Notes under the pieces: model-generated
Databases searched by the model: none
Seen by the model: the letters and a program-made list of their open reading frames with translations, nothing else
Told to the model about the DNA's origin: nothing
Part shown: positions 3,931 through 41,544 of the stretch, piece after piece
How positions within the stretch are numbered: position 1 is the first letter of the stretch
How the letters are laid out: every line of letters starts with the position of its first letter
Source: Cyanobacteria bacterium P01_E01_bin.6
GTDB lineage: Bacteria > Cyanobacteriota > Cyanobacteriia > CAKZMO01
Assembly (NCBI GenBank): GCA_039194035.1
Contig: JBCCWF010000001.1
Span: 3,970-67,969, forward strand
Reading direction: 5' to 3'
DNA: 64,000 nucleotides
Translations under genes and position numbers: made by a program

Positions 3931-4003
<73 letters not shown>

Positions 4004-16250: not shown

Positions 16251-16258
16251 GATCGCCG

Positions 16259-17338
16259 TTAAGTTGGCCGAGGCTCAATATGTAGGTCGTATGTGCAGTG
16301 GGCTGGTTTTTCTTGGGTGATAATGCGGTGAATTAAAGGGGGATGAATGGTGTCGGTCGTGTCGGGGCGGAGGGTGACGATGAAATGATAGGGACGGCCT
16401 CTGCCGAGGGTGGCGTTGGGGCCAAGATGAACATCCCCAAGGGTGAAGGCTTGGTTGGATGATTCTTGAATGGAAATGGCGCGATCGCCCTCTGACAACT
16501 GGTCATCGAGGGGAAGTCCGGTGGCATAGTGCAAAAACAACCTCAGTCCCCGACGAGTTCCGCGCCATTGGTAGATTTCCATGGCATGACGCATCAGTCG
16601 TCGCTGCTGATTGGGTAACAGCGGCAGCTCATCCATCGGCCAAGCGACCCAATGAGCCAAGAACGGCAGGAGGGCTTCTGGGGCAGTGAGAGGATCGAGG
16701 TAGCGTGTCAGCGCCTCGGTTGTTTCGATAATGGGGCGGAGTGCTTGCTCAAACACCTGCAAATAGCGATGCATGAAATCGACTTCTCGGTATACCGCGG
16801 GTAGCAGTTCCGAGAGTCTTGTGCGGGGACGCACAAACAGATTCAGACCCATGTATTCGAGCCGCCGCTGTTGCCTAAGTTCTGTGTGATTGTCTGTGTT
16901 ATTTGCGGTGTTATGGGCGGTTAGCTGTGGATCGTTCAGCGGTACCTGGTGTTGATAGGCAACCACCACATCCATGCGGTAATCGAGGGTGAGGACTTGC
17001 CGAGGGCTGAGGGCATGATCATCTTCAAAAAAGGAGTCTGGAACCTGGAACCGCAGGACTCCTTCCATTCGCTTGTATGGAGCAATGTCGTGGGCTTCCA
17101 GCCGAATGTGATACCAGTGAGACGGGAAGTTTCCTTCCAGCCGGACTTCGATAGAAATTGGCTCAGCGCTGGTATTCTCAAACAGCATGAGCAGTTCGCT
17201 TGGTTCCCCAGGAAACAGCACCAGATTTAGGCCGCCGCGCCCCAATTCGTCCTCACTCGTCGTCGGGGCGATCGCCTCCGAGGTTTGCATGGGGGCAAAC
17301 CGGAGATTGAGCGCAGGAGCCGGACGAGTGTGAACCAT
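16259..17338 (-). CDS. phage tail protein, P2 GpI-like (TIGR02242-type) with an N-terminal Ig-like domain
   Basis: C-terminal region (LPFLAHWVAWPMDELPLLPNQQRRLMRHAMEIYQWRGTRRGLRLFL) matches the conserved tail-protein-I family signature (W-G--D--W-----R-L-----LY--RGT--GL). The N-terminus carries the same N-S...WYHI Ig-like motif as the neighbouring large proteins. Confidence 0.55.
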   Translation of the reverse strand: MVHTRPAPALNLRFAPMQTSEAIAPTTSEDELGRGGLNLVLFPGEPSELLMLFENTSAEPISIEVRLEGNFPSHWYHIRLEAHDIAPYKRMEGVLRFQVPDSFFEDDHALSPRQVLTLDYRMDVVVAYQHQVPLNDPQLTAHNTANNTDNHTELRQQRRLEYMGLNLFVRPRTRLSELLPAVYREVDFMHRYLQVFEQALRPIIETTEALTRYLDPLTAPEALLPFLAHWVAWPMDELPLLPNQQRRLMRHAMEIYQWRGTRRGLRLFLHYATGLPLDDQLSEGDRAISIQESSNQAFTLGDVHLGPNATLGRGRPYHFIVTLRPDTTDTIHPPLIHRIITQEKPAHCTYDLHIEPRPT

Positions 17339-17389
17339 AAAATCCTTAATCTAAAATCCTTCAATCACAAGAGCGCTGAACCATCGCCA

Positions 17390-26816: not shown

Positions 26817-28634
26817 ATGGTTTCGTCTGCCTATCGCTTTCTCGGCTCAATTAAGCTTGCTGTGCCTCTCTTGGCTGCCATCGTTGGCATTCTGATTTGG
26901 GCAACACTTTATGAGTCAACTGTTGGGTCTGCCCTCGTCCAGCAAGAGGTTTACAAAAGCCCTTGGTTTGGAGCGTTGATGTTTATGCTGGCCATGAACT
27001 TGGGCGTGTCAGCCATTAGTCGATACCCCTGGAAAGGCACTCGAAAGGTCGGCTTTGCCCTAGCGCATTTGGGACTCATTGTTCTGATTGCAGGCTCAGC
27101 AGCGGTCATTCACCTGAGTGTAGAAGGCATGATGCTGCTTCGAACCGACCAAGGCGCAAATAGCCTAGTCCGTGTGGACGGGGATTTATTAGACGTGGTC
27201 ACTCCTGATGGGCAGTCTGTCCAGACAGATCTGATGATCAAGCCTGACAACTCAATCATTCCGTCTCGCGTTGCAGGGTTGACTATTCTAGGCTACGAGG
27301 AAAATACGATTCGCACGGTCAGTTTTGAGGAAGGAGAAACGGTCGAAAATCCCGCCGTACGCATCAGTCTCAAGAGCGATCGCATGGGGCAGCTGACGGA
27401 GCGCTGGCTGGCGGCATCTCCCTCCATGTATCAGCAAGAAAATCTTGGCCCCGTGCGGCTTGAATTGTTACGGGTCAGTTCTGACGACGTTCTCCAGCAC
27501 TATTTGGCTGCGCCTGATGCACCCACTGCTGCAGGGCGATTTGGGACGCTGACCGTGACGGTTGATGGGAATGGGCGATCGCTCGACATTGAATCGTTTT
27601 TACAGACGCCTGTGGAGGTCACGCCAGACATCACCCTCACGGTGATGGAGTTTTGGCCAGACTTCCGGTTAGATGCTCAAAATCAACCTGCTACAGCATC
27701 ACAGCAGTTGCGGAACCCCGCTGTACAGCTTGATGTTTCCCGTGGAGAGAATCAAGAGCGTTGGTTTGTTTTTGCCAGTAGTGAGTTCGATCCTGTTCGC
27801 ACGGTCGTATCCGGATCAAGCCTGGAAAATATCGATATTCAATATGCGGCACAACCTCAGCGCCAGCAAAATCTCTTCCAGGTCATTGCTGCGCCTAACG
27901 AAAAGTTCTTCTATACAGCCCAATCATCGAAAGCGTTTACGTCTGGATCGTTGGACGTAGGTCAACCCATCTCCCCTGGCTGGGTTGATTTTCAGATCAC
28001 CCTGGAGGACGTGGTGTCCCATGCCGTGCCCAATCGTCAGGTGATTCCCGTAGACGCCAATGAAATCCAGGGTTCTCCATCGCTCCAGGTCGCCACACCC
28101 GATGGCGAAACGCATTGGTTGACCTGGGCAGAACCGACCACTCTGTCTACTCCGTCTGGGGATTACTTCGCGGCGTTTAGCCCCAAAATGCTGCAGTTGC
28201 CCTTTGCAGTCGCGCTTGATGATTTCATCGTGGAACGCAATGAGGGAAGTGAGTCTGTGGCCATGTGGACGAGTCAGATTCAGATCCAAGATGCTCACCG
28301 AGGAGAACTGAGTGAGCGACGAGTATGGATGAATCACCCAACCTGGTATCAGGGATGGAAAATGGCTCAGGCCTCCTGGAATCCTGGGGATTTACGCCAA
28401 TCAACCTTACAGGTGAAACGGGAACCATGGTGGGTCACCGCCCTGACGTGGAGCGGTTCTTTACTGGTTGTGATGGGTATTGTGGTGATGTTCTATGGCG
28501 CTTCTGTGGTGAAAGCGGTGAATAAGGTCCTGCCAACGACTTCTACTGATCCATCGATGAACGAAAAGACTCAGGGAAATGCAGAGGGCGATCGCCCTCC
28601 AGTTCCCGCTCCAGCATTGATTACCCAAGACTAG
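26817..28634 (+). CDS. ccsB: cytochrome c biogenesis protein CcsB/Ccs1 (ResB family)
   Basis: N-terminus YRFLGSIKLAVPLLAAIVGILIWATLYES is the ResB/Ccs1 signature. Large soluble central domain, C-terminal TM. 605 aa. Confidence 0.8.
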   Translation: MVSSAYRFLGSIKLAVPLLAAIVGILIWATLYESTVGSALVQQEVYKSPWFGALMFMLAMNLGVSAISRYPWKGTRKVGFALAHLGLIVLIAGSAAVIHLSVEGMMLLRTDQGANSLVRVDGDLLDVVTPDGQSVQTDLMIKPDNSIIPSRVAGLTILGYEENTIRTVSFEEGETVENPAVRISLKSDRMGQLTERWLAASPSMYQQENLGPVRLELLRVSSDDVLQHYLAAPDAPTAAGRFGTLTVTVDGNGRSLDIESFLQTPVEVTPDITLTVMEFWPDFRLDAQNQPATASQQLRNPAVQLDVSRGENQERWFVFASSEFDPVRTVVSGSSLENIDIQYAAQPQRQQNLFQVIAAPNEKFFYTAQSSKAFTSGSLDVGQPISPGWVDFQITLEDVVSHAVPNRQVIPVDANEIQGSPSLQVATPDGETHWLTWAEPTTLSTPSGDYFAAFSPKMLQLPFAVALDDFIVERNEGSESVAMWTSQIQIQDAHRGELSERRVWMNHPTWYQGWKMAQASWNPGDLRQSTLQVKREPWWVTALTWSGSLLVVMGIVVMFYGASVVKAVNKVLPTTSTDPSMNEKTQGNAEGDRPPVPAPALITQD

Positions 28635-28761: not shown

Positions 28762-30507
28762 ATGAAACCTTGGAAATTTCTGATCGGTCTGCTCCTCGGA
28801 GCGCTCATTCTCATTCTCCCGTTGAGCCAATTTCAGCCCGATCCGCTGGATTCGCTCAAAACACTGACTGTTCAGCTTGACGGACGAAAGAAGCCACTGG
28901 ATACCGTGGCACTCGAAACCGTTGAAAAACTCCATGGGTCTACCCACTACAAACAGGCAGATGGAGAGACTCTGAACTATCTGCAAACGTATCTTTCAAT
29001 GGAAGTGAATGATCGGGATTGGAATCAAGAACCGTTCATTTTGTTTAGCTATCGCCCTCTCAAAGAAGAGATTGGCCTCGAACCAGAGCGTAAATACTTT
29101 AGCTTCCGTGAATTATTAAATTCTGAGCCACTGGCTCGGGTCGTCAATGATGCACACCGCAGGCAACTTTCCGATGAGGATCTAACCCGCAATGAGCGCG
29201 AAGCGCTCACGATTGAGGACCGCGTTACGCTCTTGTTCAGAACCGTGGGCACAAGTAGCTTGCCGCTGGTGCCCCATCCAGATGATGTGAAAGGAGCCTG
29301 GGCAACCATCCCCGATGCTCCCAAGCTCTATGAACCTGACCAGGTTGCTCCAGTGATGGCTCAGTTTGAGCTACTCAAACGAGCCTATCGAATGAGCCGC
29401 GATCATTCGGATGCGGTTGGTATGATGGCCTCAGAACTTCATCAAGGGTTAGCCGCTCTGAGTCCAGCCGTATATCCAGGCGATCGCACCATGGCTCGGG
29501 AAGTGTATTACAACGGTTTCCACCCCTTTGCAAAAGCTTGGATGCTTTATGGCGCAGCTTTTCTCGTGATGTTAGGTGCGCTTTGGGTCAAATCATTGGA
29601 ACGTTTTGGGCTTTATTGGACATCCCTCGGTTTATTTGTGGCAGGTATTGGCCTCCAAACCTACGGCTTTTTCTTACGGATGCAAATTGCGGGACGCCCT
29701 CCGGTCACCAACATGTATGAGTCGGTGGTCTGGGTCGGACTTGGCGTGGCGGCGATCGCCCTTCTGTTTGAACTGACCTCGCGCGCGAAGTACTACCTAC
29801 TGGCGGCGGCTCCTCTATCGGTGCTCTGTCTGGTGCTTGCCGATCGGTTGCCAGCGGTTCTCGACCCGAGCATTTCTCCATTAGTTCCAGTGCTGCGCGA
29901 TAACTTCTGGCTTAGTATCCATGTCCCGACCATTACTCTCGGATATGCAAGCTTCGCCCTCGCCATGGGGCTGGGGCATGTCGCCCTTGGTCATTATTTG
30001 TTTGCACCAGCGGCAAAAGAGCGCATTCGCACCATTGCCCAATTCAACTATCGCGTTCTCCAAGTTGGCGTGCTGTTGCTGACCACTGGCATCATCCTCG
30101 GGGGTATCTGGGCTCACTTCTCGTGGGGACGCTTTTGGGGCTGGGATCCAAAAGAGACCTGGGCACTCATTGCCCTGATGTGTTATCTCGTTCCCTTGCA
30201 TGGACGATTGGTCGGGTGGATTAGCAACTTTGGTATTACCGTCACCAGTGTGGTGTCATTTAATGCCGTGCTGATGGCATGGTACGGCGTCAACTTTGTG
30301 TTGGGAACAGGCCTACACAGCTATGGATTTAGCACGGGTGGATCAGAGCTGATCGTTGGTGCATTTGTCGGCCTCGACTTGTTATTTGTCTTGGTTGCAG
30401 CCATCCGTCATAAGCAATGGTGGCCTCAGTTCGCGTCATCCCAAGGTAATGCGGTAGAGCCATCTCTAACTGCTGAGTCTATTCCGAGTGCGTCAGAATC
30501 TGCTTAA
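28762..30507 (+). CDS. ccsA: cytochrome c-type biogenesis protein CcsA (heme lyase subunit) with ~250-aa N-terminal periplasmic extension
   Basis: WWD domain [29 protein letters not shown]. Multiple TM helices with conserved His. N-terminal signal/TM plus extra domain. 581 aa. Confidence 0.8.
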   Translation: MKPWKFLIGLLLGALILILPLSQFQPDPLDSLKTLTVQLDGRKKPLDTVALETVEKLHGSTHYKQADGETLNYLQTYLSMEVNDRDWNQEPFILFSYRPLKEEIGLEPERKYFSFRELLNSEPLARVVNDAHRRQLSDEDLTRNEREALTIEDRVTLLFRTVGTSSLPLVPHPDDVKGAWATIPDAPKLYEPDQVAPVMAQFELLKRAYRMSRDHSDAVGMMASELHQGLAALSPAVYPGDRTMAREVYYNGFHPFAKAWMLYGAAFLVMLGALWVKSLERFGLYWTSLGLFVAGIGLQTYGFFLRMQIAGRPPVTNMYESVVWVGLGVAAIALLFELTSRAKYYLLAAAPLSVLCLVLADRLPAVLDPSISPLVPVLRDNFWLSIHVPTITLGYASFALAMGLGHVALGHYLFAPAAKERIRTIAQFNYRVLQVGVLLLTTGIILGGIWAHFSWGRFWGWDPKETWALIALMCYLVPLHGRLVGWISNFGITVTSVVSFNAVLMAWYGVNFVLGTGLHSYGFSTGGSELIVGAFVGLDLLFVLVAAIRHKQWWPQFASSQGNAVEPSLTAESIPSASESA

Positions 30508-30518: not shown

Positions 30519-31001
30519 ATGGATCGTCGTAAATTTTTGAACTGGGTGGGTTTGGGAGCCTTGGCAACATCGCTTCCGGTGGCGATCGCCGCTTGCCAAT
30601 CCGAGTCATCATCCCCAGCCGATACAGCATCAGATTCTCCAGAATCATCTGCTGCGTCATCTGAGGTGGGGACGGTTCGACCCGACGGCTCATTTGTTGT
30701 GGGTACTGTTGCCGATTTAGATGAAAATGGAGTCCTCAAAGGCCGACCAGCGTTTTCCTCTGGAGCTGTTCTTGTGATTCGTGCTCCCGACGCTGCAGAT
30801 ACCCTTTATGTCGTGGACTCCCTTTGTACCCATCAGGGTTGCTCTGTTGATTGGGAATCATCAGCTTCTGAATTTGCTTGTCCGTGTCATGGCTCAACTT
30901 TTTCAGCGGATGGCAGCGTGACGACTGGTCCGGCAACGGATCCTCTGGCTACATTCCAAGCCACGATTGATGGTGAGCTTGTCTTGGTTCAACCAAGCTA
31001 G
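30519..31001 (+). CDS. Rieske [2Fe-2S] protein with Tat signal and probable lipobox (periplasmic lipoprotein)
   Basis: MDRRKFLNWVGLGALATSLPVAIAAC (twin-Arg plus lipobox-like IAAC). Ser-rich linker. Rieske boxes CTHQGC ... CPCHGS. Confidence 0.8.
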   Translation: MDRRKFLNWVGLGALATSLPVAIAACQSESSSPADTASDSPESSAASSEVGTVRPDGSFVVGTVADLDENGVLKGRPAFSSGAVLVIRAPDAADTLYVVDSLCTHQGCSVDWESSASEFACPCHGSTFSADGSVTTGPATDPLATFQATIDGELVLVQPS

Positions 31002-31011
31002 TCAGTAAATG

Positions 31012-31104
31012 GCCATTATTAAACGTGCTGTTCCAACCCCTATGCCGCCTTCGCAGTGGGCGGCATAGGGGTTGGGGATTTGGTTTCATTCTGTCCAGGT
31101 ACGT
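31012..31104. repeat. MITE-like repeat family A copy 3 (hairpin variant CCCCTATGCCGCC / GGCGGCATAGGGG)
   Basis: TTAAACGTGCTGTTCCAA...GGTTTCATTCTGTCCAGGTAC. Confidence 0.6.
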
Positions 31105-31189
31105 AGTGTGTTGTCTCGTATTGTGTCTCTTATCGAGCAGCCTATTTTCCATTCGTTGTCTCATTCAGCTCATTTATTAGCCGTTCATC

Positions 31190-31522
31190 ATGGATGATAA
31201 AAAACAGCTTTTAGCTCAAACAATGGCGTTGTTAATGTCAACAACACCTGAAACAACACTGGGTCGATTTTTGAATTTTTGCCTTGCTACGAAAGTTGAA
31301 ACGGCGATCGCCCACAAGACTCCCTTTGAAATAGCTGAAGAATTAATGGAGCATCCTGAAAAACTCTCCCAATGGATCTCTGAAACAATTGATGGCGATG
31401 ATGATTATACAGTTGATGAAATGGTTGCCCTTTCAGATATGCACATCCAAAATCCTCATACTTTCATGGCTCAATTAATAGAAGAATTGAATCAAATTCA
31501 GTTGGACGACGTAAATCCTTAA
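31190..31522 (+). CDS. hypothetical acidic protein
   Basis: ORF only. Confidence 0.3.
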   Translation: MDDKKQLLAQTMALLMSTTPETTLGRFLNFCLATKVETAIAHKTPFEIAEELMEHPEKLSQWISETIDGDDDYTVDEMVALSDMHIQNPHTFMAQLIEELNQIQLDDVNP

Positions 31523-31650
31523 ATCACTGTTCAATTACTTAGGTAATGAGAGCTTTCTACTTGCTCCCCATCAATCATGCGGCGATGCCAGGATGCTTTC
31601 CTAAAGCGACCTTGTAGATGCGTATTCTTTTTACTTGTGATTTTTCATTG

Positions 31651-31690
31651 AGCGATCGCCATAAACAATTAAATGTTTGTGGCGATCGCT
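31651..31690. promoter_or_regulatory. near-perfect palindrome built around two HIP1 sites (AGCGATCGCCATAAACAATTAAATGTTTGTGGCGATCGCT), ~300 nt upstream of the globin gene
   Basis: Seen in the sequence. Candidate operator. Confidence 0.3.
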
Positions 31691-31979
31691 TTCTTCCTAT
31701 TGGTTAAAGGGAAAGGCATGTTATGTCAAAAAGGTGAGAAATGATTAAAGATCTGACATCGATTCGCATCGATGCGGTTTATGCAACTCGTGCAAGCAAG
31801 TTCTGCATGACCTGCTGGTATTTGTATCAGAAAATGCAAAACAGCTCATTTTTTTTTCGTAATCTCTCATCTTGATAGCAGTGTTTTTCATCCATACACT
31901 TGCCAGAAAAGCATCTTTTATTTGCGTGAAATTTGCCTCAAAAAAGTGCTTCTCTATGTGTCGCCAAGGAGTCTAGGTC

Positions 31980-33014
31980 ATGTCTCTTCAAGTTGAACTT
32001 CTCGAAACAAGTTTCGAGAAAGTTAAGCCCCATGCTAATGAATTCGTTACGAGTTTTTATGACAATTTGTTCGCTGACTACCCTGCAGCAAAACCCCTGT
32101 TTGAGCACACCGATATGCCCAAACAAATACAGCAGCTTAAGGGGGGGCTCGTCATGGTGGTGGAGAATCTGCGCAACCCTGAAGTGCTCACCAAAGCGCT
32201 TGGTGGACTCGGCGCTCGCCATGTCAAGTATGGTGCGCTGCCTGACCATTACCCCCTAGTCGGCAACAGTCTGCTCAAAACCTTTGATCAGTACCTCAAG
32301 GAAGACTGGACGCCCGAGGTTAAGCAGGCTTGGGTTGACGCCTACGGCGCGATCACCGCGCTGATGCTCGAAGGCGCTGATTACTCTGAGGAACAGGTGG
32401 ATCTCTCTGCGGCTCCCCCTGCGACAGCCGCAGCGGCTGTCGACGAACCTGCCGAAGAGTCAGGCGGGTTGAAGGTTGAACTGTTAGAAGAAAGTTTTGG
32501 CAAGGTTGCGCCCCAGGCCGACGAATTTGTGGCAAGCTTCTACGACAATCTGTTCACCGACTATCCGGCATCCAAGCCACTGTTTGAGCATACCGATATG
32601 CCCAAGCAAATGCAGCAGCTCAAGGGTGGTTTGGTCATGGTGATTCAAAATCTGCGCAAGCCTGAGGTGCTCAGCAAGGCTCTGGGAGGGCTGGGTGCAC
32701 GACACGTAAAATATGGTGCGTTGCCAGAGCACTATCCACTCGTTGGGAACAGCCTGCTCAAGACATTTGGTCAGTATCTCAAAGAAGATTGGACCCCTGA
32801 GGTGAAGGGCGCGTGGGTCGATGCCTATGGTGCCATTACTGCGCTCATGTTGGAAGGAGCTGATTATTCCAAGGAAGACGTTCAGCTTGAGACTCCAGTT
32901 GCTGCGGTTGCCACTGCTGCTCCGCAGGAAGATGACGGGTCCAATGTTGCGCCTATTGTCGGTGGTCTTGTGGGTGGCGGCATTCTAATTGCTCTTTTGC
33001 TTATTCTTCTTTAA
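31980..33014 (+). CDS. tandem two-domain globin (bacterial haemoglobin-like) with C-terminal hydrophobic membrane anchor
   Basis: Two ~150-aa repeats ~80% identical to each other. Each resembles Vitreoscilla Hb (FYDNLFADYPAAKPLFEHTDM ... LGARHVKYGALPDHYPLVGNSLLKTF ... AWVDAYGAITALML). C-terminal tail PIVGGLVGGGILIALLLILL. Confidence 0.7.
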   Translation: MSLQVELLETSFEKVKPHANEFVTSFYDNLFADYPAAKPLFEHTDMPKQIQQLKGGLVMVVENLRNPEVLTKALGGLGARHVKYGALPDHYPLVGNSLLKTFDQYLKEDWTPEVKQAWVDAYGAITALMLEGADYSEEQVDLSAAPPATAAAAVDEPAEESGGLKVELLEESFGKVAPQADEFVASFYDNLFTDYPASKPLFEHTDMPKQMQQLKGGLVMVIQNLRKPEVLSKALGGLGARHVKYGALPEHYPLVGNSLLKTFGQYLKEDWTPEVKGAWVDAYGAITALMLEGADYSKEDVQLETPVAAVATAAPQEDDGSNVAPIVGGLVGGGILIALLLILL

Positions 33015-33031
33015 GACAACAGTGATAAGTT

Positions 33032-33685
33032 ATGGCGTTCAATTTTGGAAGAATGCTTAGACGAAAATCGTTCTTCAGTCTTCAAACGGCCATTATTGCT
33101 GCTGGCATTATTTTACTGGTTGGGCTTGTTGGGGTCTTCGCGCTGGAAACGGATCAGCAGACGATCTTCTTACCTGGTGAAACATCTGAAGGCCATTTTT
33201 TGTTTGAAGCATCCTGTGCATCCTGTCATGAGGGGTTTAAGCCGGTGACGAACGAGACATGCATGCGTTGTCATGAAGCCGAAATGGCGGACGACAAGCA
33301 TGGCCCCAAGAAGTTTCGTGATCCTCGTTGGGCTGCTGACCTCGAAAAGCTTGAAGTGTTGACCTGTACAACTTGCCACAACGAACATGTGCATATGTTT
33401 GGGCGGGGTGTTCATCTTCAGCCAGATTTATGTATGGCTTGTCATCAGGGCATCATTGAGGGCGATATGCAGAGCCATGACGGATTTACTCCTGATGGCT
33501 GCTGGACAGCAGGGTGCCATAACTTCCACGATCACCGTTCGATTTCCACTGGGTTCCTCGCTGACACGCTCGATCAGCCTCCGATGTTGCCTGTTCAGGA
33601 GCTGCCAATCCTGGACGTGATAACAACACTGGACTCAGCACCCGACGCTGATTTGTGGGATGAGTTTTTAGGAGGTGAATCATGA
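33032..33685 (+). CDS. membrane-anchored pentaheme c-type cytochrome (four CxxCH + one CX4CH)
   Basis: N-terminal TM IIAAGIILLVGLVGVFAL. Heme motifs CASCHE, CMRCHE, CTTCHN, CMACHQ and CWTAGCH. Confidence 0.7.
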   Translation: MAFNFGRMLRRKSFFSLQTAIIAAGIILLVGLVGVFALETDQQTIFLPGETSEGHFLFEASCASCHEGFKPVTNETCMRCHEAEMADDKHGPKKFRDPRWAADLEKLEVLTCTTCHNEHVHMFGRGVHLQPDLCMACHQGIIEGDMQSHDGFTPDGCWTAGCHNFHDHRSISTGFLADTLDQPPMLPVQELPILDVITTLDSAPDADLWDEFLGGES

Positions 33686-34485
33686 GGCGATCGCTCGTTC
33701 TCTTGGTTGCCATCCTGATGGGATTGGTCGGATATATGCTGGGACATCCACAGCCAGTCTTCGCTCATGCGTCTGAGGCTGACCTTCAGGAGATTCAAAC
33801 ACTCTGGGAAGGCAGTGTTCATGCTCTGGCTGATGTGAATTGCTCAAGTTGTCATCAGCAGGATGAGACGAATGCATTTATTGCTCATCCTGATCATGAA
33901 AGCTGTCAATCCTGTCATGACGCACAGGTCGATACTTTCTTACTCGGGAAACACGGGATCCGGTTGTTCGAAGGGATGAGTCCACTGACTCCTGCCATGG
34001 CTCGATTGCCGATGAAGGCTGACGCGCACAATCGCCAAATGACCTGCAATACTTGCCATGATGTTCATTCGGTCAATACCGTGCAAGCCTCTGTTGACTC
34101 GTGTCTGACCTGCCATAACGATACACACTCGTTGAACTATGAAAATTCCAGACACGCTGAGCTGTTTATGGCGGATCAAGGCTTGCCTCGCCCGTCAAGC
34201 CAGGCCGTCAGTTGTTCGACCTGCCATATGCCCCGCCAAGATTTGGGTAGCCCGAGCAGCCCCCAAGTTGTGGTAAATCACAACAACACGTTTACCCTAT
34301 TACCGCGCGATCGCATGGTCATTGAAGTCTGTATGAACTGCCATGGCGTTGAGTATAGCTACAACAGTATTTTTGACGATGATTTGGTAGAGGCAAATTT
34401 CGACAAGCCTCCTAGCCTATCGCTAGAGACCTTTGACTTGGTGCGTACCTTTGAAAAACAGCGTACCAGCCAGGATAGCGAATAA
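33682..34485 (+). CDS. periplasmic hexaheme c-type cytochrome
   Basis: Signal peptide. CSSCH, CQSCH, CNTCH, CLTCH, CSTCH, CMNCH. Start overlaps the upstream stop (ATGA), indicating translational coupling. Confidence 0.75.
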   Translation: MRRSLVLLVAILMGLVGYMLGHPQPVFAHASEADLQEIQTLWEGSVHALADVNCSSCHQQDETNAFIAHPDHESCQSCHDAQVDTFLLGKHGIRLFEGMSPLTPAMARLPMKADAHNRQMTCNTCHDVHSVNTVQASVDSCLTCHNDTHSLNYENSRHAELFMADQGLPRPSSQAVSCSTCHMPRQDLGSPSSPQVVVNHNNTFTLLPRDRMVIEVCMNCHGVEYSYNSIFDDDLVEANFDKPPSLSLETFDLVRTFEKQRTSQDSE

Positions 34486-34610
34486 CGGCAGTCGTCAATT
34501 CCAGTGTTCGCATCAACGAACTTTCTCACACGTTCACGCCCTCAAATCCTGTTATGTCAGGTACGTGATTATCACCGATACAACAGTCTTACTCTCTAGA
34601 CAAGGAGTTC

Positions 34611-35276
34611 ATGTTTATGAAAACTATCAATCAATGGATGGATGCGATTCGCACCCGGACAGTCGCATTCATTGCGATTATCCTAGCGGTTGCAGTTACT
34701 GCAATTTCTTGTAGTGGTAGTCCTGCTCCCGACGCAGGAGAAACCGTTAGCGGCATCTCTCCCGAAATCGTTGTGGATTATATTCATACGGTTGCTGCAT
34801 CCGATCGGACGGCTTACACCAAGCATGTTGTGGCTCGTCTGAAAACATTGGAAGGCAACGATAAGCCAGATGGTGTTGTTCCAGCTGAAGCCACCGAAGC
34901 TTGGCAGCAAACCGACGGTATTCCACTCCCCGCTCAGATGTTCCGACTCGGAGCAGAGCTAGCGTCAGAAGGTGGCGATTTTACCATTGGTCTCATTTCC
35001 CCTTGGAATATTAATGACAGCCAGGCTCCGAAGGGAGAATTTGAAGAAGTTGGGATGCAGGAAGTGATTGACACTGGTGAACCCTACAAAGGGTATCAAG
35101 AAATTGGTGGTCAACAATACTATTCTGCAATTTACCCCGACCCTGCGGTTGCCGATGCCTGTGTCAGCTGTCACAACAATCATCCGACCCATCAGGAACG
35201 GTATCCAGACAAAGTGTTCGAACTGAATGATGTGATGGGTGGCGTTGTCATCAACCTTCCTCTAGAGGGTGCTTAA
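34611..35276 (+). CDS. c-type monoheme protein, Tll0287/DUF3365-like PAS-type heme sensor domain; N-terminal anchor or lipoprotein signal
   Basis: Single CVSCHNNH motif near the C-terminus, as in Tll0287-like proteins. ~220 aa. N-terminal hydrophobic segment ending ISCSG. Confidence 0.5.
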   Translation: MFMKTINQWMDAIRTRTVAFIAIILAVAVTAISCSGSPAPDAGETVSGISPEIVVDYIHTVAASDRTAYTKHVVARLKTLEGNDKPDGVVPAEATEAWQQTDGIPLPAQMFRLGAELASEGGDFTIGLISPWNINDSQAPKGEFEEVGMQEVIDTGEPYKGYQEIGGQQYYSAIYPDPAVADACVSCHNNHPTHQERYPDKVFELNDVMGGVVINLPLEGA

Positions 35277-35451
35277 GCGAGGTACGGGGTTCTAGTTTCT
35301 CGCTGGGGTCGTGAAGTGTTCATGTCGAACATTTCACGACCCCAAGTCGCTAGACACTAGGTAAATGATTAATTTTGATGTCTGCCTGTAACGTGCCCTT
35401 AACGTTATTAAGCATCGACCGAGTTCTTCTTTTGCTCGATTTCTCACTTGT

Positions 35452-36279
35452 TTGTTCCGACACGCTTATCATCCAAGACCCATGAAACCCAGGTTTTCAA
35501 CGCTCATTCTCCTAACTCTTTTAACGGCCATTATTTTGGTTCCGTTTGCCCTAAGCAGCACCTATCTGCCGCTGTTGCGCGATCGCGCATTTACGCTATA
35601 CGAGCTGTTTCGGACTGACCTGTATAAGCAAATTACGGGGTTTGTACTGTTGGCGCTTGTGCTCGCAGAAATGGGCTTAGCGCTCAGGAAGCGAGGCCGG
35701 AAGTGGAAGGTTAAATTGCCAGGAACGATGATGCTTTGGAGAAGTGTTCACATTTTCTTGGGCGTCTTCTTAATTGCAGCCGTTTTGGTTCATACCATCG
35801 GCTCAACTGGGTTGAATTTCAATGCGGTTTTTTTATGGGTGTTTTTTGGTGTGGCGCTGACTGCTCTGATTGGCGTGGTGGCAGAGACCGGTATTTTGGA
35901 AACCGATGTTGTTCAGGTGTTACGACTCCGGTTCTTGCGCCGCGATGGATTCGTTAAGCCAGCACCTGCTGGTTCCGTCGCCAAGCTGACTGGAGAGATG
36001 GCGGCGGCCCATTCACCTGACCAGTTCGTCGGCAGCGTATCGGCCTCTCCTGCAACCGTGTCCATTGGGCAACCTAGTATGGTGGCTGGCAACCCTGAAC
36101 CCGAGCCGATTTTCACCCCCGAAGGAGCCGCAAAACTTCCGTGGGTCATTGCAGCGATGTCAAAAGGCCCTATTATTCGAGGGCTTCGGGCGATTTGGCT
36201 GTCGTCTCATATTTTCCTTGTGAGTGTGTTTACAATCATGCTCGGCTTCCATATTTTCCTCGCGTTTTATTATCAATAG
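35452..36279 (+). CDS. polytopic membrane protein with conserved His in TM helices (possible b-type heme or ferric-reductase-like membrane subunit)
   Basis: TM helices containing WRSVHIFLGV ... LVHTIG and SSHIFLVS ... FHIFLAFY. Confidence 0.35.
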   Translation: MFRHAYHPRPMKPRFSTLILLTLLTAIILVPFALSSTYLPLLRDRAFTLYELFRTDLYKQITGFVLLALVLAEMGLALRKRGRKWKVKLPGTMMLWRSVHIFLGVFLIAAVLVHTIGSTGLNFNAVFLWVFFGVALTALIGVVAETGILETDVVQVLRLRFLRRDGFVKPAPAGSVAKLTGEMAAAHSPDQFVGSVSASPATVSIGQPSMVAGNPEPEPIFTPEGAAKLPWVIAAMSKGPIIRGLRAIWLSSHIFLVSVFTIMLGFHIFLAFYYQ

Positions 36280-36297
36280 GGTAAGAGGCTTCAACCT

Positions 36298-36774
36298 ATG
36301 GCTTCTGGACGTAGTGAACCGCCAGCAATGCGACGCATTGGTGTCACGTTTATTGTTCTGATTGGGTTTGCAATTGCAACCTTTTTTCTAACCCGCCCAG
36401 TCACAGCCTCGTCAAGCATGTCCCCTGTCTCTGGCCTGGTGATGCTGAAAGCCATGGCACAGGCATCCGTTCCCTATGAAGAGGCGATCGCCAGCGGTAA
36501 ACCCACCTTCATGGAGTTCTACGCAGACTGGTGCACGACTTGTCAGTCCATGGCATTAACGGTTGCGGAGCTGCACACTCACTATGGGGCAGATCTGAAT
36601 TTTGTCATGCTGAATATTGACGACCCCAAATGGCGATCGCAAGTTGAACAATTTCATGTCGGTGGAGTCCCTGAGTATTTCTTACTGGACAACGACCAAT
36701 CAATACATCGCTCGTTTATTGGTCGGGTTCCTTACGGGATTATGGCTCAATCCGTAAATAATCTAATAAATTAA
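36298..36774 (+). CDS. thioredoxin-like thiol:disulfide oxidoreductase (CcsX/ResA/TlpA-like, membrane-anchored)
   Basis: N-terminal TM then the thioredoxin fold with WCTTCQ (CxxC) active site. Confidence 0.65.
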   Translation: MASGRSEPPAMRRIGVTFIVLIGFAIATFFLTRPVTASSSMSPVSGLVMLKAMAQASVPYEEAIASGKPTFMEFYADWCTTCQSMALTVAELHTHYGADLNFVMLNIDDPKWRSQVEQFHVGGVPEYFLLDNDQSIHRSFIGRVPYGIMAQSVNNLIN

Positions 36775-37380
36775 TGCGTGTGATTGCGGCTTGCAGTATT
36801 GTTTTTTACAGCAATTATGAATGTAAGAGAGCACTACTGAGTCATCGCATTTTGGATATACTCCATGACCATATCAAATGAGCAACCCGGCGATCGCCCT
36901 TGTTTAAGCAACGAAGAGCAAGCGCTGAAAAGTTACATGGCCTATCTTCAACTCTGTGAATCGATATGGCCAGAGGTTTCAATCGAGCTGATGACGAAAG
37001 CATTTCAGGGCAATTCTTCCCTATCTGAGTCGATCATCCAAAGTAATTAATGATGCAATTTGTTACAGTCACAGATAGTAAGCTGCAAAGATAATCTGTT
37101 TGCACTTGGTGTTTAGATATCAGCAACTCACCGTTGTCCTGACCTGTATTCGTTATGCGCTCTCACCCAGATGGTTTTACTGTCTATTATTAGGTGCTAT
37201 GACTAAAGTTTCTAAGGGGTTACTCCTGAGTGTGACAATGCTTCTAGATGCATTAGAGTTTTTAAGCGATCCGTTTGTGCTTGCCTCAGGCATTGTTCTC
37301 AGTACCTACTATTTCGGACTACACATACTAAACATTAGTTCGTCTAGTGGGTAAGTTGTTAGCTATTGAATTAGTTATTG

Positions 37381-37494
37381 AAATGGCGTGGTTGTCCTCC
37401 GACGGAGGCGGGAGACAACCAACAAAATACGCAAGATAAATGGCGTAGTTGCCCTCCGACGAAGGCGGGAGACAACCAACAAAATACGCAAAAT
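37381..37494. repeat. two tandem copies of a 57-bp unit, each with a nested GC hairpin (GTTGTCCTCCGACGGAGGCGGGAGACAAC)
   Basis: Direct reading. The units differ at 5 positions. Confidence 0.8.
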
Positions 37495-37529
37495 AGGTGA
37501 GTTTTAGCTTATGAAGCAACTCGCTATAA

Positions 37530-37618
37530 TTGAACGTACCCTCCCAAATCCTGCGCTGCCTGCGCAGCGGACAGCACAGGATTTGAGTTTTTGTTTCTAA
37601 TTACGCCCAGTTACTGAA
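37530..37618. repeat. MITE-like repeat family A copy 4 (hairpin variant CCTGCGCTGCC / GGACAGCACAGG)
   Basis: ATAATTGAACGTACCCTCCCAAATCCTG...GGATTTGAGTTTTTGTTTCTAATTACGCCCAGTTACTGAAC. Confidence 0.6.
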
Positions 37619-37634: not shown

Positions 37635-38552
37635 TTGACTGTTATGCAACCGATGACTTCGAAAGCACTCATCCGCCTTGTGGGAGTGTTGCTCATGACA
37701 CTCCTCCCGTATGGATGTAGCACTGTTGGCAAAATGGCATCACTTCCAAGCGTGGTTGCTCAACGGTCAGATACCGTTGATGTCAGCGATCGCATTCAAC
37801 CCTTTGCCCAGGTAGATGTGGTGTATCTCGGGGAGACCCATGACAGCACTGCTGATCATGATGCTCAGCTACAGATTGTTCAGGCACTCTACGCCCAAAA
37901 TCCAGAGATGGCGATCGCTCTGGAAATGTTTCAACACCCTTTCCAGGAAAGTCTGGATAACTATATCAGTGGCACTATCGACGAAGAAACGCTTCGCGAA
38001 CAAACTCAATATGACTTGCGATGGGGATTTCCATGGGAATACTACGCTCCGATACTGCGTTTTGCGAGAGAGCATCAAATTCCGTTGCTTGCTCTCAATG
38101 CTCCATCCGAAGTTGTGAGTAAGATTGCCCGCGAAGGACTCGACAGTTTAAGCGAATCAGAGCAACAGGTCATTCCTCCCCGGTCAGAAATCCGAACTGA
38201 CAACGAGGGCTACCGTGAATACGTTGGGGCCGTGTTTGGACATGCGCACCACAGTGGCCATTCTGGCATGAGTTTTGAGAATTTTTTCTCGGCTCAAGTG
38301 GTTTGGGATGAAACGATGGCTGAACAGATTACTGCGTTTCTTACCCGTGAGCCTGGCCATCAAGTGGTGGTGCTGGCGGGTCAAGGCCATGTGATTTACG
38401 GCTATGGCATTCCAGATCGAGTGGCTCGTCGGTTGGGTGACTCCATCGAGCAATATACGATCTTGCTCAATCCCATCGGGGAGTTCCTTGATGAAGGAGA
38501 AGGGGCGATCGCTGATTCCTTTTGGTTCAGTGAAAATGGACAGAAGCCATAA
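37635..38552 (+). CDS. ChaN-family (Tiki/haem-binding uptake, PF04187-like) lipoprotein
   Basis: Lipobox LLPYGCST. Conserved VVYLGETHDSTADHDAQLQIVQAL ... ALEMF and GHAHHSG motifs typical of ChaN/DUF399. Confidence 0.6.
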   Translation: MTVMQPMTSKALIRLVGVLLMTLLPYGCSTVGKMASLPSVVAQRSDTVDVSDRIQPFAQVDVVYLGETHDSTADHDAQLQIVQALYAQNPEMAIALEMFQHPFQESLDNYISGTIDEETLREQTQYDLRWGFPWEYYAPILRFAREHQIPLLALNAPSEVVSKIAREGLDSLSESEQQVIPPRSEIRTDNEGYREYVGAVFGHAHHSGHSGMSFENFFSAQVVWDETMAEQITAFLTREPGHQVVVLAGQGHVIYGYGIPDRVARRLGDSIEQYTILLNPIGEFLDEGEGAIADSFWFSENGQKP

Positions 38553-38560
38553 CCGCTATT

Positions 38561-38611
38561 GTCTGTTGCGACTCTCTGTTGCGACTCTCTGTTGCGAACC
38601 TCTGTTGAGAA
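38561..38611. repeat. 13-bp tandem repeat (TCTGTTGCGACTC) x ~4, directly after the ChaN stop
   Basis: Direct reading. Confidence 0.75.
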
Positions 38612-38735
38612 CTAATGTCCATTTAATGTAAGCCATGTTCTATCGAATTCTCTGATGGAAGCGATAGACCCAATCGTTTGTTGATGATGCACAGAGTCTT
38701 TTACAGTAAGCCATATTCTTGTTATCGAGGGTTTT

Positions 38736-39614
38736 ATGGTTGCTGTATCTCTGACCGTTGCTCAAAAGAAAGTTCATCGCAACGGGATACTCCTTTTGCT
38801 GTTGACGACTATCATTTTTGGCACGTCGTTTCCTGTCCTTAAGAACACGATTAGCAGCTTATCTCCCTCTGTATTGATTGCTGTGCGCTACAGCATTGCG
38901 GCGATCGCCCTGCTGCCATGGCTGCGAAATCTGAATCGTCGCCTCCTGCGAGATGGGGCGCTGCTTGGTTTTGTGCTGTTTTTGGAAACAGCCTGCGCGC
39001 TCACAGGACTAGAAACTATTTCTGCCAATCGGTCGGCATTTATCATTGGGTTAAACGTGATTTTGGTGCCCTTGTTAGGGGTACTGCTTGGTCACCACGT
39101 GCCAAAGAAGGTGTTGTTTGCGGCAGGGCTGGCGGTCGTGGGCGTTAGCATCATGTCTGGCGATGGCGGTGGCATTAGTTCCGGAGACGTGCTCTCGCTG
39201 GCATCGGCGCTCGGCATTGCTATCTATATTATGTTGCTAGAAGCGATCGCCCCTCGACATCCATCGCTGCCCCTAGCGTCTGTGCAAATTTGGGTCATGT
39301 TGATGTTGGGTGTCGCGTGGGCTCTTCCAGATTTACTGAGTCAAATGGCGATGATTGGCGATCGCCTTCCTGCTTTGGTGTACTTAGGTATCGTTGTTAC
39401 TATCGGTCCTCTATGGGGGCAGGCCATGGGGCAACGCTCGGTTCCAGCCCATGAAGCCGCATTGGTTTATACCCTGGAACCTGTATTTGCTACGGTCTTC
39501 TCGTTTTGGCTCTTGGGAGAAGGACTAGGAATAAAAGGTGCACTGGGAGCTGTCTGTATTTTGACTGCAACAGTCGTGAGTCAGTATCAACGCCGCTCAA
39601 AGCCAGTGCCGTAG
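38736..39614 (+). CDS. EamA/DMT-superfamily transporter
   Basis: Ten predicted TM helices in two duplicated EamA-like halves. 292 aa. Confidence 0.65.
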   Translation: MVAVSLTVAQKKVHRNGILLLLLTTIIFGTSFPVLKNTISSLSPSVLIAVRYSIAAIALLPWLRNLNRRLLRDGALLGFVLFLETACALTGLETISANRSAFIIGLNVILVPLLGVLLGHHVPKKVLFAAGLAVVGVSIMSGDGGGISSGDVLSLASALGIAIYIMLLEAIAPRHPSLPLASVQIWVMLMLGVAWALPDLLSQMAMIGDRLPALVYLGIVVTIGPLWGQAMGQRSVPAHEAALVYTLEPVFATVFSFWLLGEGLGIKGALGAVCILTATVVSQYQRRSKPVP

Positions 39615-39637
39615 CCAGTGCCGTAACCAGTGCTGTA
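39602..39637. repeat. 12-bp tandem repeat (GCCAGTGCCGTA) x 3 spanning the EamA stop codon
   Basis: Direct reading. Confidence 0.7.
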
Positions 39638-39916
39638 GATTCATGGATCGGTCATGATCCGATGATGAGCAAAAAGGGCGATCGCCCTTTTTGCTCATCA
39701 TCTTAATTTCTTCTTTTACTGTCGTCACTCCCTTCGTCCTCCCCACCCCTTCACTCAGTATCGTGAGAGCGTATTTTGCAATCGTGATAAACAATCTGCA
39801 AAAGGCTCATGTCCTCGGTAGGATAGTAAGCATAGTTACAGAATTTTAGATGTTGTATTGACGCTGCGGGATGATCGTCAGTGAGCTGTCTAAGTTGTCT
39901 GTTTTGAATCGATTGT

Positions 39917-41014
39917 TTGGGAGAGATACGAATGGATCTGGTCACACTTCAAGGTTGGCTTGACAATGCGTCCTTTGCCGTCATGTTCGCAACGATGTTG
40001 ATCTACTGGGTTAGCGCTGCATTTCCTGGTCTGTCTGTGCTGAGCAGCTTGGGAACAACTGGGATGGCGATCGCCAACTTGTTGATAGCAGCCCTCCTCA
40101 CCGCTCGCTGGATAGAAGGCGGATACTTCCCATTGAGCAATTTGTATGAGTCCCTATTTTTTGTGGCCTGGGGCATCACGGCGGTTCATTTGCTGGCAGA
40201 GCGCATGAGCCAGAGCCGTTTGGTTGGGACGGTTACAGCGCCTGTTGTCATGGGAATTACAGCATTTGCAGCGCTCTCGTTGCCCGACACAATGCAGACA
40301 TCAGAGCCACTGGTGCCTGCTCTCAAGTCCAATTGGTTGATGATGCATGTCAGCGTGATGCTCATCAGCTATGCGGCTCTGATGGTTGGGTCTCTGATGG
40401 CGATCGCCTTTTTGGTGATCACACGAGGCCAAGCGGTTGAGCTAAAAGGGAGTTCGGTGGGAACAGGAAGCTTCCGAACTAGACGGGAAAAGTTGAAACC
40501 GATTCAATTACCAGAAGATGGAGAGATGTCGTCATCCATTCCCAGTGAGTCCTTGCTGTCGTCCCCGGCCCAAGCTTTTTCTCCCTCTTCAGGGGCCACA
40601 GCTGTCTTAGCGACATCTCCCGTGGCAACTGCTGCGAGCAAGCAGACCTCCATTCCTTCCCCTATAGCGGCTGCACCCCTATCTCCCCAGCGATTGACCT
40701 TGGCAGATACCTTGGACAACATTAGCTATCGCATCATTGGATTAGGATTTCCACTCCTCACCATCGGCATTATTGCCGGAGCGGTTTGGGCCAATGAAGC
40801 GTGGGGGTCTTACTGGAGCTGGGATCCAAAGGAAACATGGGCGCTCATTACGTGGTTAGTGTTTGCGGCCTATCTCCATGCTCGCATTACCCGAGGATGG
40901 CAGGGACGTCGTCCTGCGATCCTTGCCGCGTCAGGATTTTTTGTGGTGTGGATTTGCTATCTCGGCGTCAATATTCTGGGCAAGGGACTGCACAGCTATG
41001 GCTGGTTTTTCTAG
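39917..41014 (+). CDS. ccsA: CcsA-family cytochrome c biogenesis protein, second paralogue, with Ser/Pro/Ala-rich insertion
   Basis: WWD domain [29 protein letters not shown]. Internal low-complexity insert [36 protein letters not shown]. Confidence 0.7.
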
Positions 41015-41127
41015 CTGGTAAGTACCTGGACGTCATTAAAACCCAAAATCCAAATCCTGTACCGCCCGCGCAGCGGGCGGTACAGGATTTGGAAGAATAC
41101 GTTTAATTATGGCTATCTACTTATTGT
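41015..41127. repeat. MITE-like repeat family A copy 5 (inverted; hairpin variant CCTGTACCGCC / GGCGGTACAGG)
   Basis: GTAAGTACCTGGACGTCATTAAAACCCAAAATCC...ACGTTTAATTATGGCTATCTACTTA. Confidence 0.7.
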
Positions 41128-41139: not shown

Positions 41140-41544
41140 TCAAATCACTGGGAGATGCTTCTGTTCTAGTGCTGCTTTTAATTCTTTTGGATTGAAGAGA
41201 ATTGGCAAAAAATGAATGCTGTTTACTTCTTTGAAATAGAACAGCACGGGGACAGGTTGCGAGAAGATGCGCCAGTTTTGCCATTCTGCATAGGGAAACT
41301 GGCGTATCAGGCTTTCTCCGCGATGGATATCTAGCGCTGTTGAGGTGAACGTTAGACGTAGCGTCACGGCTTGATAGAGCAAAAATAGGCCAAACAATGC
41401 AAGGACTGCACTTGCCCAAACCTGAATGAGCAGAAGCGGCATGGAAAAAAGAACAAGAGCAATTGGGATGCTATAGCTGGGAGCTAAGGTCGTTGATGCC
41501 TCGCCGGAGGGGGCGGATACAGAGACAGATGCAGATTCAGACAC
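41140..41544 (-). CDS. small membrane protein (cyanobacterial DUF-type)
   Basis: Two TM helices. No motif. Confidence 0.35.
   Translation of the reverse strand: MSESASVSVSAPSGEASTTLAPSYSIPIALVLFSMPLLLIQVWASAVLALFGLFLLYQAVTLRLTFTSTALDIHRGESLIRQFPYAEWQNWRIFSQPVPVLFYFKEVNSIHFLPILFNPKELKAALEQKHLPVI

Follow-up and report, generated by a model that had tools for sequence, protein, structure and literature searches.

Does a second ccsA gene, found downstream of genes for a ChaN-type lipoprotein and an EamA-type exporter and close to a multiheme cytochrome cluster, serve a heme-delivery route of its own? The question arises from the interval between 37.6 and 41.0 kb of the window, by which we mean the whole 64-kb stretch of DNA analyzed. 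The three neighbors named in the original prediction were all present as intact open reading frames on the + strand, with matches to PF04187 (ChaN), PF00892 (DMT), and PF01578 (CcsA). The presence of a second full WWD-domain CcsA about 9 kb from the first was likewise confirmed by PF01578 and TIGR03144, the other copy lying 9.4 kb upstream. The interval very probably comprises three independently organized genes, i.e. a housekeeping ccsA, an EamA gene placed there by chance, and a ChaN gene that ends the upstream cluster.

The upstream copy (positions 28762–30507, + strand) encodes a long-form CcsA-like protein of 581 aa with an N-terminal extension of about 290 aa. It scored 153.8 bits against TIGR03144, under the cutoff of 187.6. 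Its WWD motif reads WAHFSWGRFWGWDP, and the histidines H387, H480, and H519 do not vary. In cyanobacteria it has over 120 homologues, and full-length relatives occurred, among the matches listed, in Verrucomicrobiota, Bdellovibrionota, and Planctomycetota. A contig scan for the long form yielded 11 cyanobacterial loci among the matches listed, the others again coming from these three groups. The gene for its ResB/Ccs1-like partner (positions 26817–28634, + strand; PF05140, 58.5 bits) adjoined that for long-form CcsA in nearly all loci listed. In 11 other loci, long-form CcsA stood next to the ResB-like gene and less than 10 kb from the 5- and 6-heme cytochromes.

The remaining conserved cluster (positions 30519–36774, + strand), identified by Pfam matches and synteny, encodes a Rieske protein, a 110-aa ORF, a di-globin, a 5-heme and a 6-heme cytochrome c, a Tll0287-like c-heme protein, a membrane protein, and a thioredoxin-like protein. 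The two multiheme cytochromes contain 10 CXXCH motifs and 1 CX4CH motif, the latter in one of them, and the Tll0287-like protein contains 1 CXXCH. The cluster would carry its own heme-attachment machinery for its 12 heme c sites. The 581-aa gene is the truly divergent paralogue and is linked to multiheme substrates, for which its specificity is putative. A literature search found no paper on the cluster or on cyanobacterial multiheme/ResB/Tll0287 combinations. Neither EamA nor a short-form ccsA was encoded less than 10 kb from any other cluster among the loci examined, and the location of ccsA near the cluster would be a rearrangement specific to the source lineage.

The ChaN gene (positions 37653–38552, + strand) encodes a putative lipoprotein of 299 aa from the Cofac_haem_bdg/Tiki superfamily. 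It matched PF04187 with 253.3 bits (gathering score 27.7) over profile positions 4–213 of 213. Translation starts at ATG 37653, and the corresponding protein P0241, annotated as "ChaN family lipoprotein", is also 299 aa long. The N terminus reads ...LLMTLLPYGCS; its Cys is the majority residue and less than 90% conserved in 120 homologues. With the ChaN of Campylobacter jejuni, which holds a cofacial heme pair (PDB 2G5G), the protein shares PF04187, the conserved motifs YLGExH...DH, ALEMF, and GH..YG.GIP, and a putative N-terminal signal with Cys; heme binding is putative, and the direct sequence match to 2G5G was marginal (E = 1.4e-3 over 108 aa). Unlike a heme or iron uptake locus, its context is a cytochrome c maturation/multiheme cluster.

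ChaN would be the last gene of this conserved cluster. Of 10 clusters listed via long-form CcsA, 6 have ChaN next to their thioredoxin (the window, L008, L010, L011, L012, and L014), and the other 4 are listed without it at that position. ChaN occupied the same position in Oscillatoria sp. CS-180 and Leptolyngbya iicbica (L140 and L141), which were found via ChaN itself. Because ChaN travels with the cluster in all eight of these loci, its predicted role as an accessory of the short-form ccsA was not upheld. Apparently, 12 or more of the 120 top ChaN matches came from genomes with a long-form CcsA match. The window also contains a small hydrophobic ORF before ChaN (positions 37199–37354, + strand; probable start ATG 37199, with TTG 37100 in the ORF list). 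This ORF is 64% identical to one in L008 and aligned weakly with ORFs of 72–79 aa located directly 5' of ChaN in L010, L140, and L141; in the last two it ends about 12 nt from ChaN. In the window, the small ORF and ChaN are set apart by an inserted tandem repeat of 57 bp in two copies (positions 37381–37495).

Could ChaN stand near the cluster by positional accident, as a general periplasmic tetrapyrrole- or iron-related lipoprotein? Homologues with 39–58% identity were located at 49 metagenome loci, of which 34 extend 2.5 kb or more upstream of ChaN, and no cluster gene was nearby. The neighbors were IMPase-like, PucC/MFS-like, and ChlG-like genes. ChaN is therefore widespread in cyanobacteria, and its linkage to the cluster is possibly positional only. 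The clusters listed without ChaN and the JGI family annotation "iron-regulated protein" point in the same direction. On the other hand, adjacency was kept although the cluster proteins are just 50–70% identical, and it held even in loci where the module from globin to ChaN is turned around with respect to ResB-CcsA. The small ORF is co-conserved between thioredoxin and ChaN, and the cluster-linked ChaN proteins mostly formed one clade, with L011 outside, in a rough neighbor-joining tree without support values. Positional accident is thus a possible but doubtful explanation. Equally tentative is the proposal that ChaN, the small ORF, and the thioredoxin make up a dedicated periplasmic accessory of the long-form System II synthase. 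In that role ChaN might buffer or deliver heme or act as a hydrolase of the Tiki type. No description of a ChaN-assisted long-form System II pathway was found in a literature search.

The flagged ccsA gene (positions 39932–41014, + strand) encodes a System II cytochrome c synthase subunit of 360 aa, named CcsB in TIGRFAM and NCBI. The product passed the TIGR03144 equivalog cutoff of 187.6 with a whole-protein profile score of 354.8 bits and matched PF01578 with 246 bits (threshold 29.9). ATG 39932 was assigned as the start instead of TTG 39917, given that GGAG lies just 5' of it, that MDLVTLQ opens all orthologues, and that P0001 has 360 aa. P0001, annotated CcsB in the NCBI MAG record of Cyanobacteria bacterium P01_E01_bin.6, is 100% identical to the ccsA product, and an identical 360-aa CcsA was encoded on a 1.4-kb contig of an independent Logan assembly. 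Identity to CcsB annotated in many Leptolyngbya-like genomes (Leptolyngbyaceae, Elainellaceae) amounted to 74–87%; the isolates among them include PCC 6406, L. iicbica, and Thermoleptolyngbya.

A WWD motif and three histidines are the defining features of the CcsA family (PMC5526843, PMC10663686). The WWD motif of ccsA (positions 40787–40828, + strand; aa 286–299) was invariant in an alignment of 35 orthologues and, according to the published topology (PMC5526843), would lie on the p-side. Residues H139, H316, and H354 aligned with H761, H858, and H897 of H. hepaticus CcsBA (PDB 7S9Y). The catalytic residues were all invariant in the ortholog alignment. We take H139 and H354, on either side of the WWD motif, to be the periplasmic histidines P-His1 and P-His2, and H316 to be the transmembrane histidine TM-His, after Frawley & Kranz 2009. 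The roles assigned to these histidines agree with PMC10663686. On these sequence features, the flagged ccsA appears to be the canonical cyanobacterial/plastid-type housekeeping gene. It is not the special copy that it had been taken for: it is the canonical TIGR03144 orthologue, and the 581-aa copy is the divergent one. It is a standard gene already called CcsB in the source MAG annotation. The housekeeping CcsA would, to judge from its family, take cytoplasmic heme via the TM-histidine site. Its Ccs1/CcsB partner would be encoded elsewhere in the genome; the sole ResB-like gene within the 64-kb window pairs with the long-form copy and not with the short-form ccsA.

A pseudogene or an assembly duplication, which would have undermined the two-copy claim, was ruled out. 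The open reading frame and its catalytic residues are intact, the paralogues are 41–45% identical over about 110 aa only, and the identical gene is present on the independent Logan contig. Alternatively, the short-form ccsA could be an additional recent duplicate, with a third, true housekeeping ccsA elsewhere in the genome. The view is confined to the 64-kb window, which favors this idea; nevertheless, it is very improbable, as the best match at 74–87% was to the CcsB of the isolates named above, the catalytic residues are without exception invariant, and the match lists and loci of both Oscillatoria sp. CS-180 and L. iicbica showed a short-form protein and a long-form protein, one of each.

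The low-complexity stretch placed by the original prediction at about 40500–40720 was found at positions 40472–40678 (+ strand), which encode a variable Ser/Pro/Ala/Thr-rich loop of 69 aa (aa 181–249). As an insert it is not unusual for CcsA. Among the 120 closest orthologues the loop measured 41 to 93 aa, with a median of 56, and a length of 69 aa or more occurred in 17 of the 121 CcsA sequences. The sole extreme property was the Ser+Pro content, with a fraction of 0.33 versus a median of 0.18, the highest of the 121 sequences. Across representatives of 50% identity clusters, loop size was gauged by the distance between P-His1 and the WWD motif. This spacing was 147 here, 119–171 in close orthologues, and 52–310 among 142 family representatives, and it was fixed at 63 in long-form CcsA. 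TRF detected no tandem repeat in the loop DNA (40.4–40.7 kb), ruling out an origin of the loop by slippage or tandem repetition.

An alignment of CcsA orthologues revealed a conserved T-A-V-L island in the middle of the loop and conserved flanks, the rest being variable. In an AlphaFold model built from 35 close orthologues, which is itself of low confidence (mean pLDDT 60, pTM 0.46), aa 169–252 had pLDDT values below 50 and were without secondary structure. The basic stretch FRTRREKLK at the start of the loop and the p-side position of the WWD motif (PMC5526843) lead us to infer that the loop, which precedes the WWD helix, is cytoplasmic. The Ser/Pro segment would be a cytoplasmic linker joining the P-His1 helix to the helix that runs into the WWD motif. 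Its sequence thus has the appearance of a linker variable in length and composition and not of a lineage-specific insertion. As a still weaker proposal than that on ChaN, the T-A-V-L island might be a docking motif for a heme donor or Ccs1.

Like cyanobacterial and plastid CcsA (System II/CCS; Chlamydomonas, Synechocystis), the flagged protein is a full-length equivalog with the WWD motif, the three histidines, and the same helix order. The variable loop ahead of its WWD helix would likewise lie on the n-side, and its gene is unfused and does not adjoin ccs1. No difference of substance emerged, the loop lying at the long, Ser/Pro-rich end of the normal range. P-His1, TM-His, P-His2, and WWD are also shared with H. 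hepaticus CcsBA (PDB 7S9Y/7S9Z), for which the System II mechanism was taken from PMC10663686. CcsBA is a fused synthase, whereas the CcsA of the window is unfused, and the P-His1-to-WWD spacing of 147 compares with about 67 in CcsBA, so that the cytoplasmic loop of the window protein is about 80 aa longer.

The DMT/EamA permease (positions 38736–39614, + strand) is a generic protein of 292 aa with two domains (PF00892, 96.4 bits). It scored 51.6 bits against TIGR00950 (cutoff 230) and stayed below every specific NCBIfam cutoff. Across 141 fetched loci, no EamA homologue adjoined ChaN, ccsA, or the multiheme cluster. The proposal that EamA is a heme-handling partner was not supported, and its gene would lie in the interval by chance. 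Spacers of 183 nt between ChaN and EamA and of 317 nt between EamA and ccsA (positions 39615–39931) separate the three genes, and the latter holds a terminator-like hairpin (positions 39661–39702, + strand) with a 19-bp stem followed by a T-rich tail. Downstream, ccsA converges with a gene for a DUF3119 protein (positions 41140–41544, − strand; PF11317, 151 bits). DUF3119 was the sole ccsA neighbor common to a relative, namely L004, which has the same arrangement and a CcsA of 84% identity; in PCC 6406 and four metagenomic relatives (75–84% identity) the neighbors were otherwise different. The order ChaN-EamA-ccsA was never met in 6 ccsA, 80 long-form CcsA, and 49 ChaN loci.

A REP-like palindrome, CAAATCCTG-N23-CAGGATTTG, gave three matches in the window versus 0 expected. 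Its second copy lies at positions 37545–37585, and the third (positions 41051–41091), a hairpin with a 20-bp stem between the convergent ccsA and DUF3119 genes, is probably a bidirectional terminator for both. A promoter scan revealed no enrichment above shuffles. A search of the whole window against Rfam returned a tRNA (positions 3931–4003) as the sole match and no RNA element near the ChaN-EamA-ccsA interval.

The variable neighbors of ccsA, the terminator before it, and the association of ChaN with the cluster lead to the conclusion that ChaN-EamA-CcsA is not a functional unit. That the three form an accessory heme-delivery module, with ChaN as heme-binding lipoprotein, EamA as exporter, and CcsA as a synthase whose Ser/Pro insertion marks neofunctionalization, is highly improbable and already largely refuted by synteny: the genes do share one strand within 3.4 kb, the ChaN family binds heme in Campylobacter (PDB 2G5G being the only solved relative), and the loop tops 121 sequences in Ser+Pro, but the gene order occurred in no other locus, the ccsA neighbors differ among six relatives, EamA or ccsA was nearby in 0 of 11 other clusters and 0 of 49 ChaN loci, both spacers and the hairpin 5' of ccsA separate the genes, CcsA is a canonical equivalog with a loop length well inside the normal range, and EamA is under all specific NCBIfam cutoffs.

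With ccsA, EamA, and ChaN read as independently organized genes, the predicted partitioning of heme routes stands in part: two distinct CcsA-type genes lie within 15 kb, one of them next to the multiheme module. From synteny it is plausible that a dedicated route of cytochrome c maturation is kept apart from the housekeeping one, as one CcsA adjoins the multiheme module, which also encodes a ResB-like partner and a thioredoxin of its own. That one genome can hold several System II synthases, with dedicated copies next to multiheme substrates, has a precedent in the heme lyase isoenzymes NrfI, CcsA1, and CcsA2 of Wolinella succinogenes (Kern et al. 2010, PMC3414424), as far as they are described in PMC10663686. 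As in Wolinella, the pair of 581-aa CcsA-like and ResB-like proteins is encoded next to 5- and 6-heme cytochromes, one with CX4CH. The Wolinella enzymes, in the same account, are fused CcsBA proteins specialized for CXXCK or CX15CH, whereas the window proteins are unfused and their specialization would follow from synteny. The flagged ccsA would correspond to the general-purpose copy, the role of CcsA2 in that account, and not to a dedicated one; among six relatives it had no conserved linkage to cytochrome c substrate or accessory genes that would mark a dedicated isoenzyme.

For work on the cluster these results amount to a correction. The dedicated machinery would consist of the ResB-like protein, the 581-aa CcsA-like protein, and the thioredoxin, frequently with ChaN, and the gene at 39.9 kb stands outside the maturation machinery of the multiheme module. 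Any novelty lies in the upstream multiheme cluster and not in the flagged ccsA, which matters little in the form in which the question was posed. In marine filamentous cyanobacteria, the long-form synthase could mature a 12-heme module, one site being CX4CH, that works with the Rieske protein and the di-globin. Should ChaN indeed serve the long-form System II, cytochrome c biogenesis would gain a new accessory factor, and the ChaN family would be tied to heme handling beyond uptake loci.

The interval 37635-41014 holds three plus-strand ORFs, encoding ChaN, EamA, and CcsA. Pfam confirmed all three, and thus a full CcsA does lie downstream of ChaN and a DMT permease, as had been predicted. The ccsA frame (39932-41014; 360 aa) encodes a full CcsA and matched PF01578 with 246 bits. 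Database matches fixed the starts of both ccsA and ChaN. The ATG at 39932 is also the start of P0001, a protein named CcsB from Cyanobacteria bacterium P01_E01_bin.6 that is 100% identical to CcsA from the window; MDLVTLQ opens all orthologues, and GGAG lies just upstream. ChaN starts at the ATG at 37653 (299 aa, as in its database match P0241; PF04187, Cofac_haem_bdg, 253 bits).

The second WWD-domain protein was likewise found, 9.4 kb upstream of CcsA (28762-30507; 581 aa; long-form CcsA-like). With the equivalog model TIGR03144 (CcsB; cutoff 187.6 bits), CcsA scored above the cutoff (354.8 bits) and the 581-aa protein below it (153.8 bits). The two paralogues share 41-45% identity over only ~110 aa around the WWD motif, and the identical ccsA gene is present in a contig of an independent Logan assembly. 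Both results contradict a duplication created by assembly, and the pair represents an old paralogy. The CcsA family is defined by the WWD motif and three histidines (PMC5526843; PMC10663686). These did not vary across orthologues of the 360-aa protein, in which His139 (P-His1), His316, and His354 align with His761, His858, and His897 of the Helicobacter hepaticus CcsBA cryo-EM structure. Annotated CcsB proteins of many Leptolyngbyaceae and Elainellaceae, among them the isolates Leptolyngbya sp. PCC 6406, L. iicbica, Thermoleptolyngbya, and Oscillatoria sp. CS-180, are 74-87% identical to it. The gene is an ordinary housekeeping ccsA, already annotated, with a normal variable loop.

This loop (aa 181-249; nt 40472-40678) lies between the P-His1 helix and the helix leading into the WWD motif. 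Its opening basic run and the p-side orientation of the WWD motif make a cytoplasmic location most likely. The original prediction regarded it as a low-complexity insert unusual for CcsA, which its length does not bear out: at 69 aa it falls within the 41-93 aa (median 56) of the 120 closest orthologues, ranking 105th of 121, with 17 of the 121 as long or longer. P-His1 and the beginning of the WWD motif are 147 residues apart, compared with ~67 in H. hepaticus CcsBA. Close orthologues have spacings of 119-171, and 142 family representatives clustered at 50% identity span 52-310 (at least 147 in 44 of them); in long-form proteins the spacing is a constant 63. The flanks are strongly conserved. 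A T-A-V-L island in mid-loop (aa 222-226; 40596-40610) has Thr223, Val225, and Leu226 at ≥90%, and the motif T[AL]V[LI] occurs in 89 of the 121 sequences. Only the Ser+Pro fraction, 0.33 against a median of 0.18, is extreme, the highest of the set; Ser+Pro+Thr+Ala (0.57) stays inside its range. A search of the loop DNA for a tandem repeat found none, and residues 169-252 are without predicted structure in an AlphaFold model that is of low confidence overall (pLDDT 60). The loop is therefore an ordinary hypervariable linker whose composition happens to be extreme.

The neighbors of orthologous ccsA genes were different in each relative examined: argH and NUDIX in Leptolyngbya sp. PCC 6406, sensor kinases upstream and DUF3119 downstream in an 84%-identical relative, and other, unrelated gene sets in three more. 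Convergent DUF3119 was the sole neighbor in common, and with one relative. The permease between ChaN and ccsA (plus strand; PF00892, 96 bits, two domains) reached no specific NCBIfam cutoff and is an unrelated neighbor. Spacers of 183 nt (ChaN-EamA) and 317 nt (EamA-ccsA) separate the genes, the latter with a hairpin of a 19-bp stem and a T-rich tail. For the closest relative, one metagenome contains both the upstream cluster (locus L008) and ccsA (L004), on separate contigs.

ChaN had been assigned to the second CcsA as an accessory. This placement is wrong; ChaN goes with the upstream cluster. In the first three contexts, the conserved order was ResB-like (26817-28634 in the window), long-form CcsA-like, Rieske, globin, 5-haem cytochrome, 6-haem cytochrome, Tll0287-like c-haem protein, membrane protein, thioredoxin-like protein, small ORF, and ChaN. 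A tblastn survey of every locus fetched via the long-form CcsA yielded ten with the full multihaem module, the window included. Six of these (window, L008, L010 from PCC 7376, L011, L012, and L014) have ChaN after the thioredoxin; in L009 (PCC 7367), L015, L019, and L035 it is not at that place. The loci of Oscillatoria sp. CS-180 and L. iicbica, reached via ChaN, have the same arrangement. In several clusters the block from globin to ChaN has the opposite orientation to ResB-CcsA, with ChaN still at its end. No EamA or short-form ccsA gene occurred within 10 kb in the other cluster loci surveyed. For at least 12 of the best 120 ChaN matches, the longest contig equals in size that of a long-form CcsA match, and in a rough neighbor-joining tree cluster-linked ChaNs make up most of one clade. 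We consider it fairly probable that ChaN is functionally part of the cluster.

Homologues with 39-58% identity were also found at 49 metagenome loci (L091-L139; 34 with ≥2.5 kb of upstream flank) with no cluster gene, EamA, or ccsA nearby, so the ChaN family is widespread in cyanobacteria. Recurrent neighbors there were IMPase-like, PucC/MFS-like (BCD family), and ChlG-like genes, which hints at a tetrapyrrole-related neighborhood.

In cluster-linked loci, the small ORF conserved directly before chaN (window 37199-37354; L008 18252-18491; L010 2669-2905; L140 9769-9987 and L141 9771-9989, from Oscillatoria sp. CS-180 and L. iicbica) is hydrophobic, 51-79 aa long, and without a Pfam family. Its C-terminal NRP tail is missing in the window and L008 versions and present in the others. 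Only ~12 nt separate it from chaN in L140 and L141; in the window a 57-bp tandem repeat (two copies, 93% match, 37381-37495) and a REP-like hairpin lie between them. This GC-rich palindrome of ~41 nt, CAAATCCTG-N23-CAGGATTTG, has three copies in the window (5094-5134, 37545-37585, and 41051-41091), with none expected by chance. The latter two flank the chaN-eamA-ccsA segment, and the last also forms the hairpin between convergent ccsA and DUF3119. Short tandem repeats lie just past the chaN stop (13-nt unit, 38562-38607) and across the eamA stop (12-nt unit, 39601-39638).

Elsewhere in the window, minus-strand phage-tail-like genes (14647-19570; Baseplate_J 17390-19570, Tail_P2_I 16259-17338) stand beside large WD40, TPR, and Cache/cNMP-binding proteins. 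GC content is 0.53-0.56 in the block at ~6-20 kb that contains them and ~0.48 elsewhere; the region could be contractile-injection-system-like or a prophage remnant.

The long-form CcsA-like protein has >120 cyanobacterial homologues and retains the WWD motif and His387, His480, and His519. Full-length relatives with 32-48% identity stand beside ResB in Verrucomicrobiota, Bdellovibrionota, and Planctomycetota and share its N-terminal extension. This extension (aa 1-290; 28762-29630) has many invariant residues, e.g. QLDGRKKPLDTVA, and no Pfam or NCBIfam match. The cluster, whose remaining genes lie at 30519-36774, encodes 12 haem c sites: four CXXCH plus one CX4CH, then six CXXCH, then one CXXCH. 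The CX4CH site, CWTAGCH (aa 157-163 of the 5-haem cytochrome, which is encoded at 33032-33685), might explain why a dedicated synthase exists. The cluster's globin is a tandem di-globin (31980-33014; 344 aa) with ~70% identity between its halves and a hydrophobic tail at the C terminus; its counterpart in PCC 7367 has a single globin domain, and L. iicbica has an additional globin gene.

Dedicated System II isoenzymes beside multihaem substrates, NrfI, CcsA1, and CcsA2 of Wolinella, are mentioned in PMC10663686, citing Kern et al. (2010), and provide a precedent. Genomes with both CcsA types are common, and Oscillatoria sp. CS-180 and L. iicbica have one of each. Given this precedent and a cluster with its own CcsA-like protein, the proposed partitioning of haem routes in this organism is plausible. 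The roles are reversed, however, with the 360-aa protein as the general enzyme. In the literature that was searched, no description of the upstream cluster was found. The residual novelty lies in that cluster and in a possible role of ChaN there, not in the short-form ccsA.
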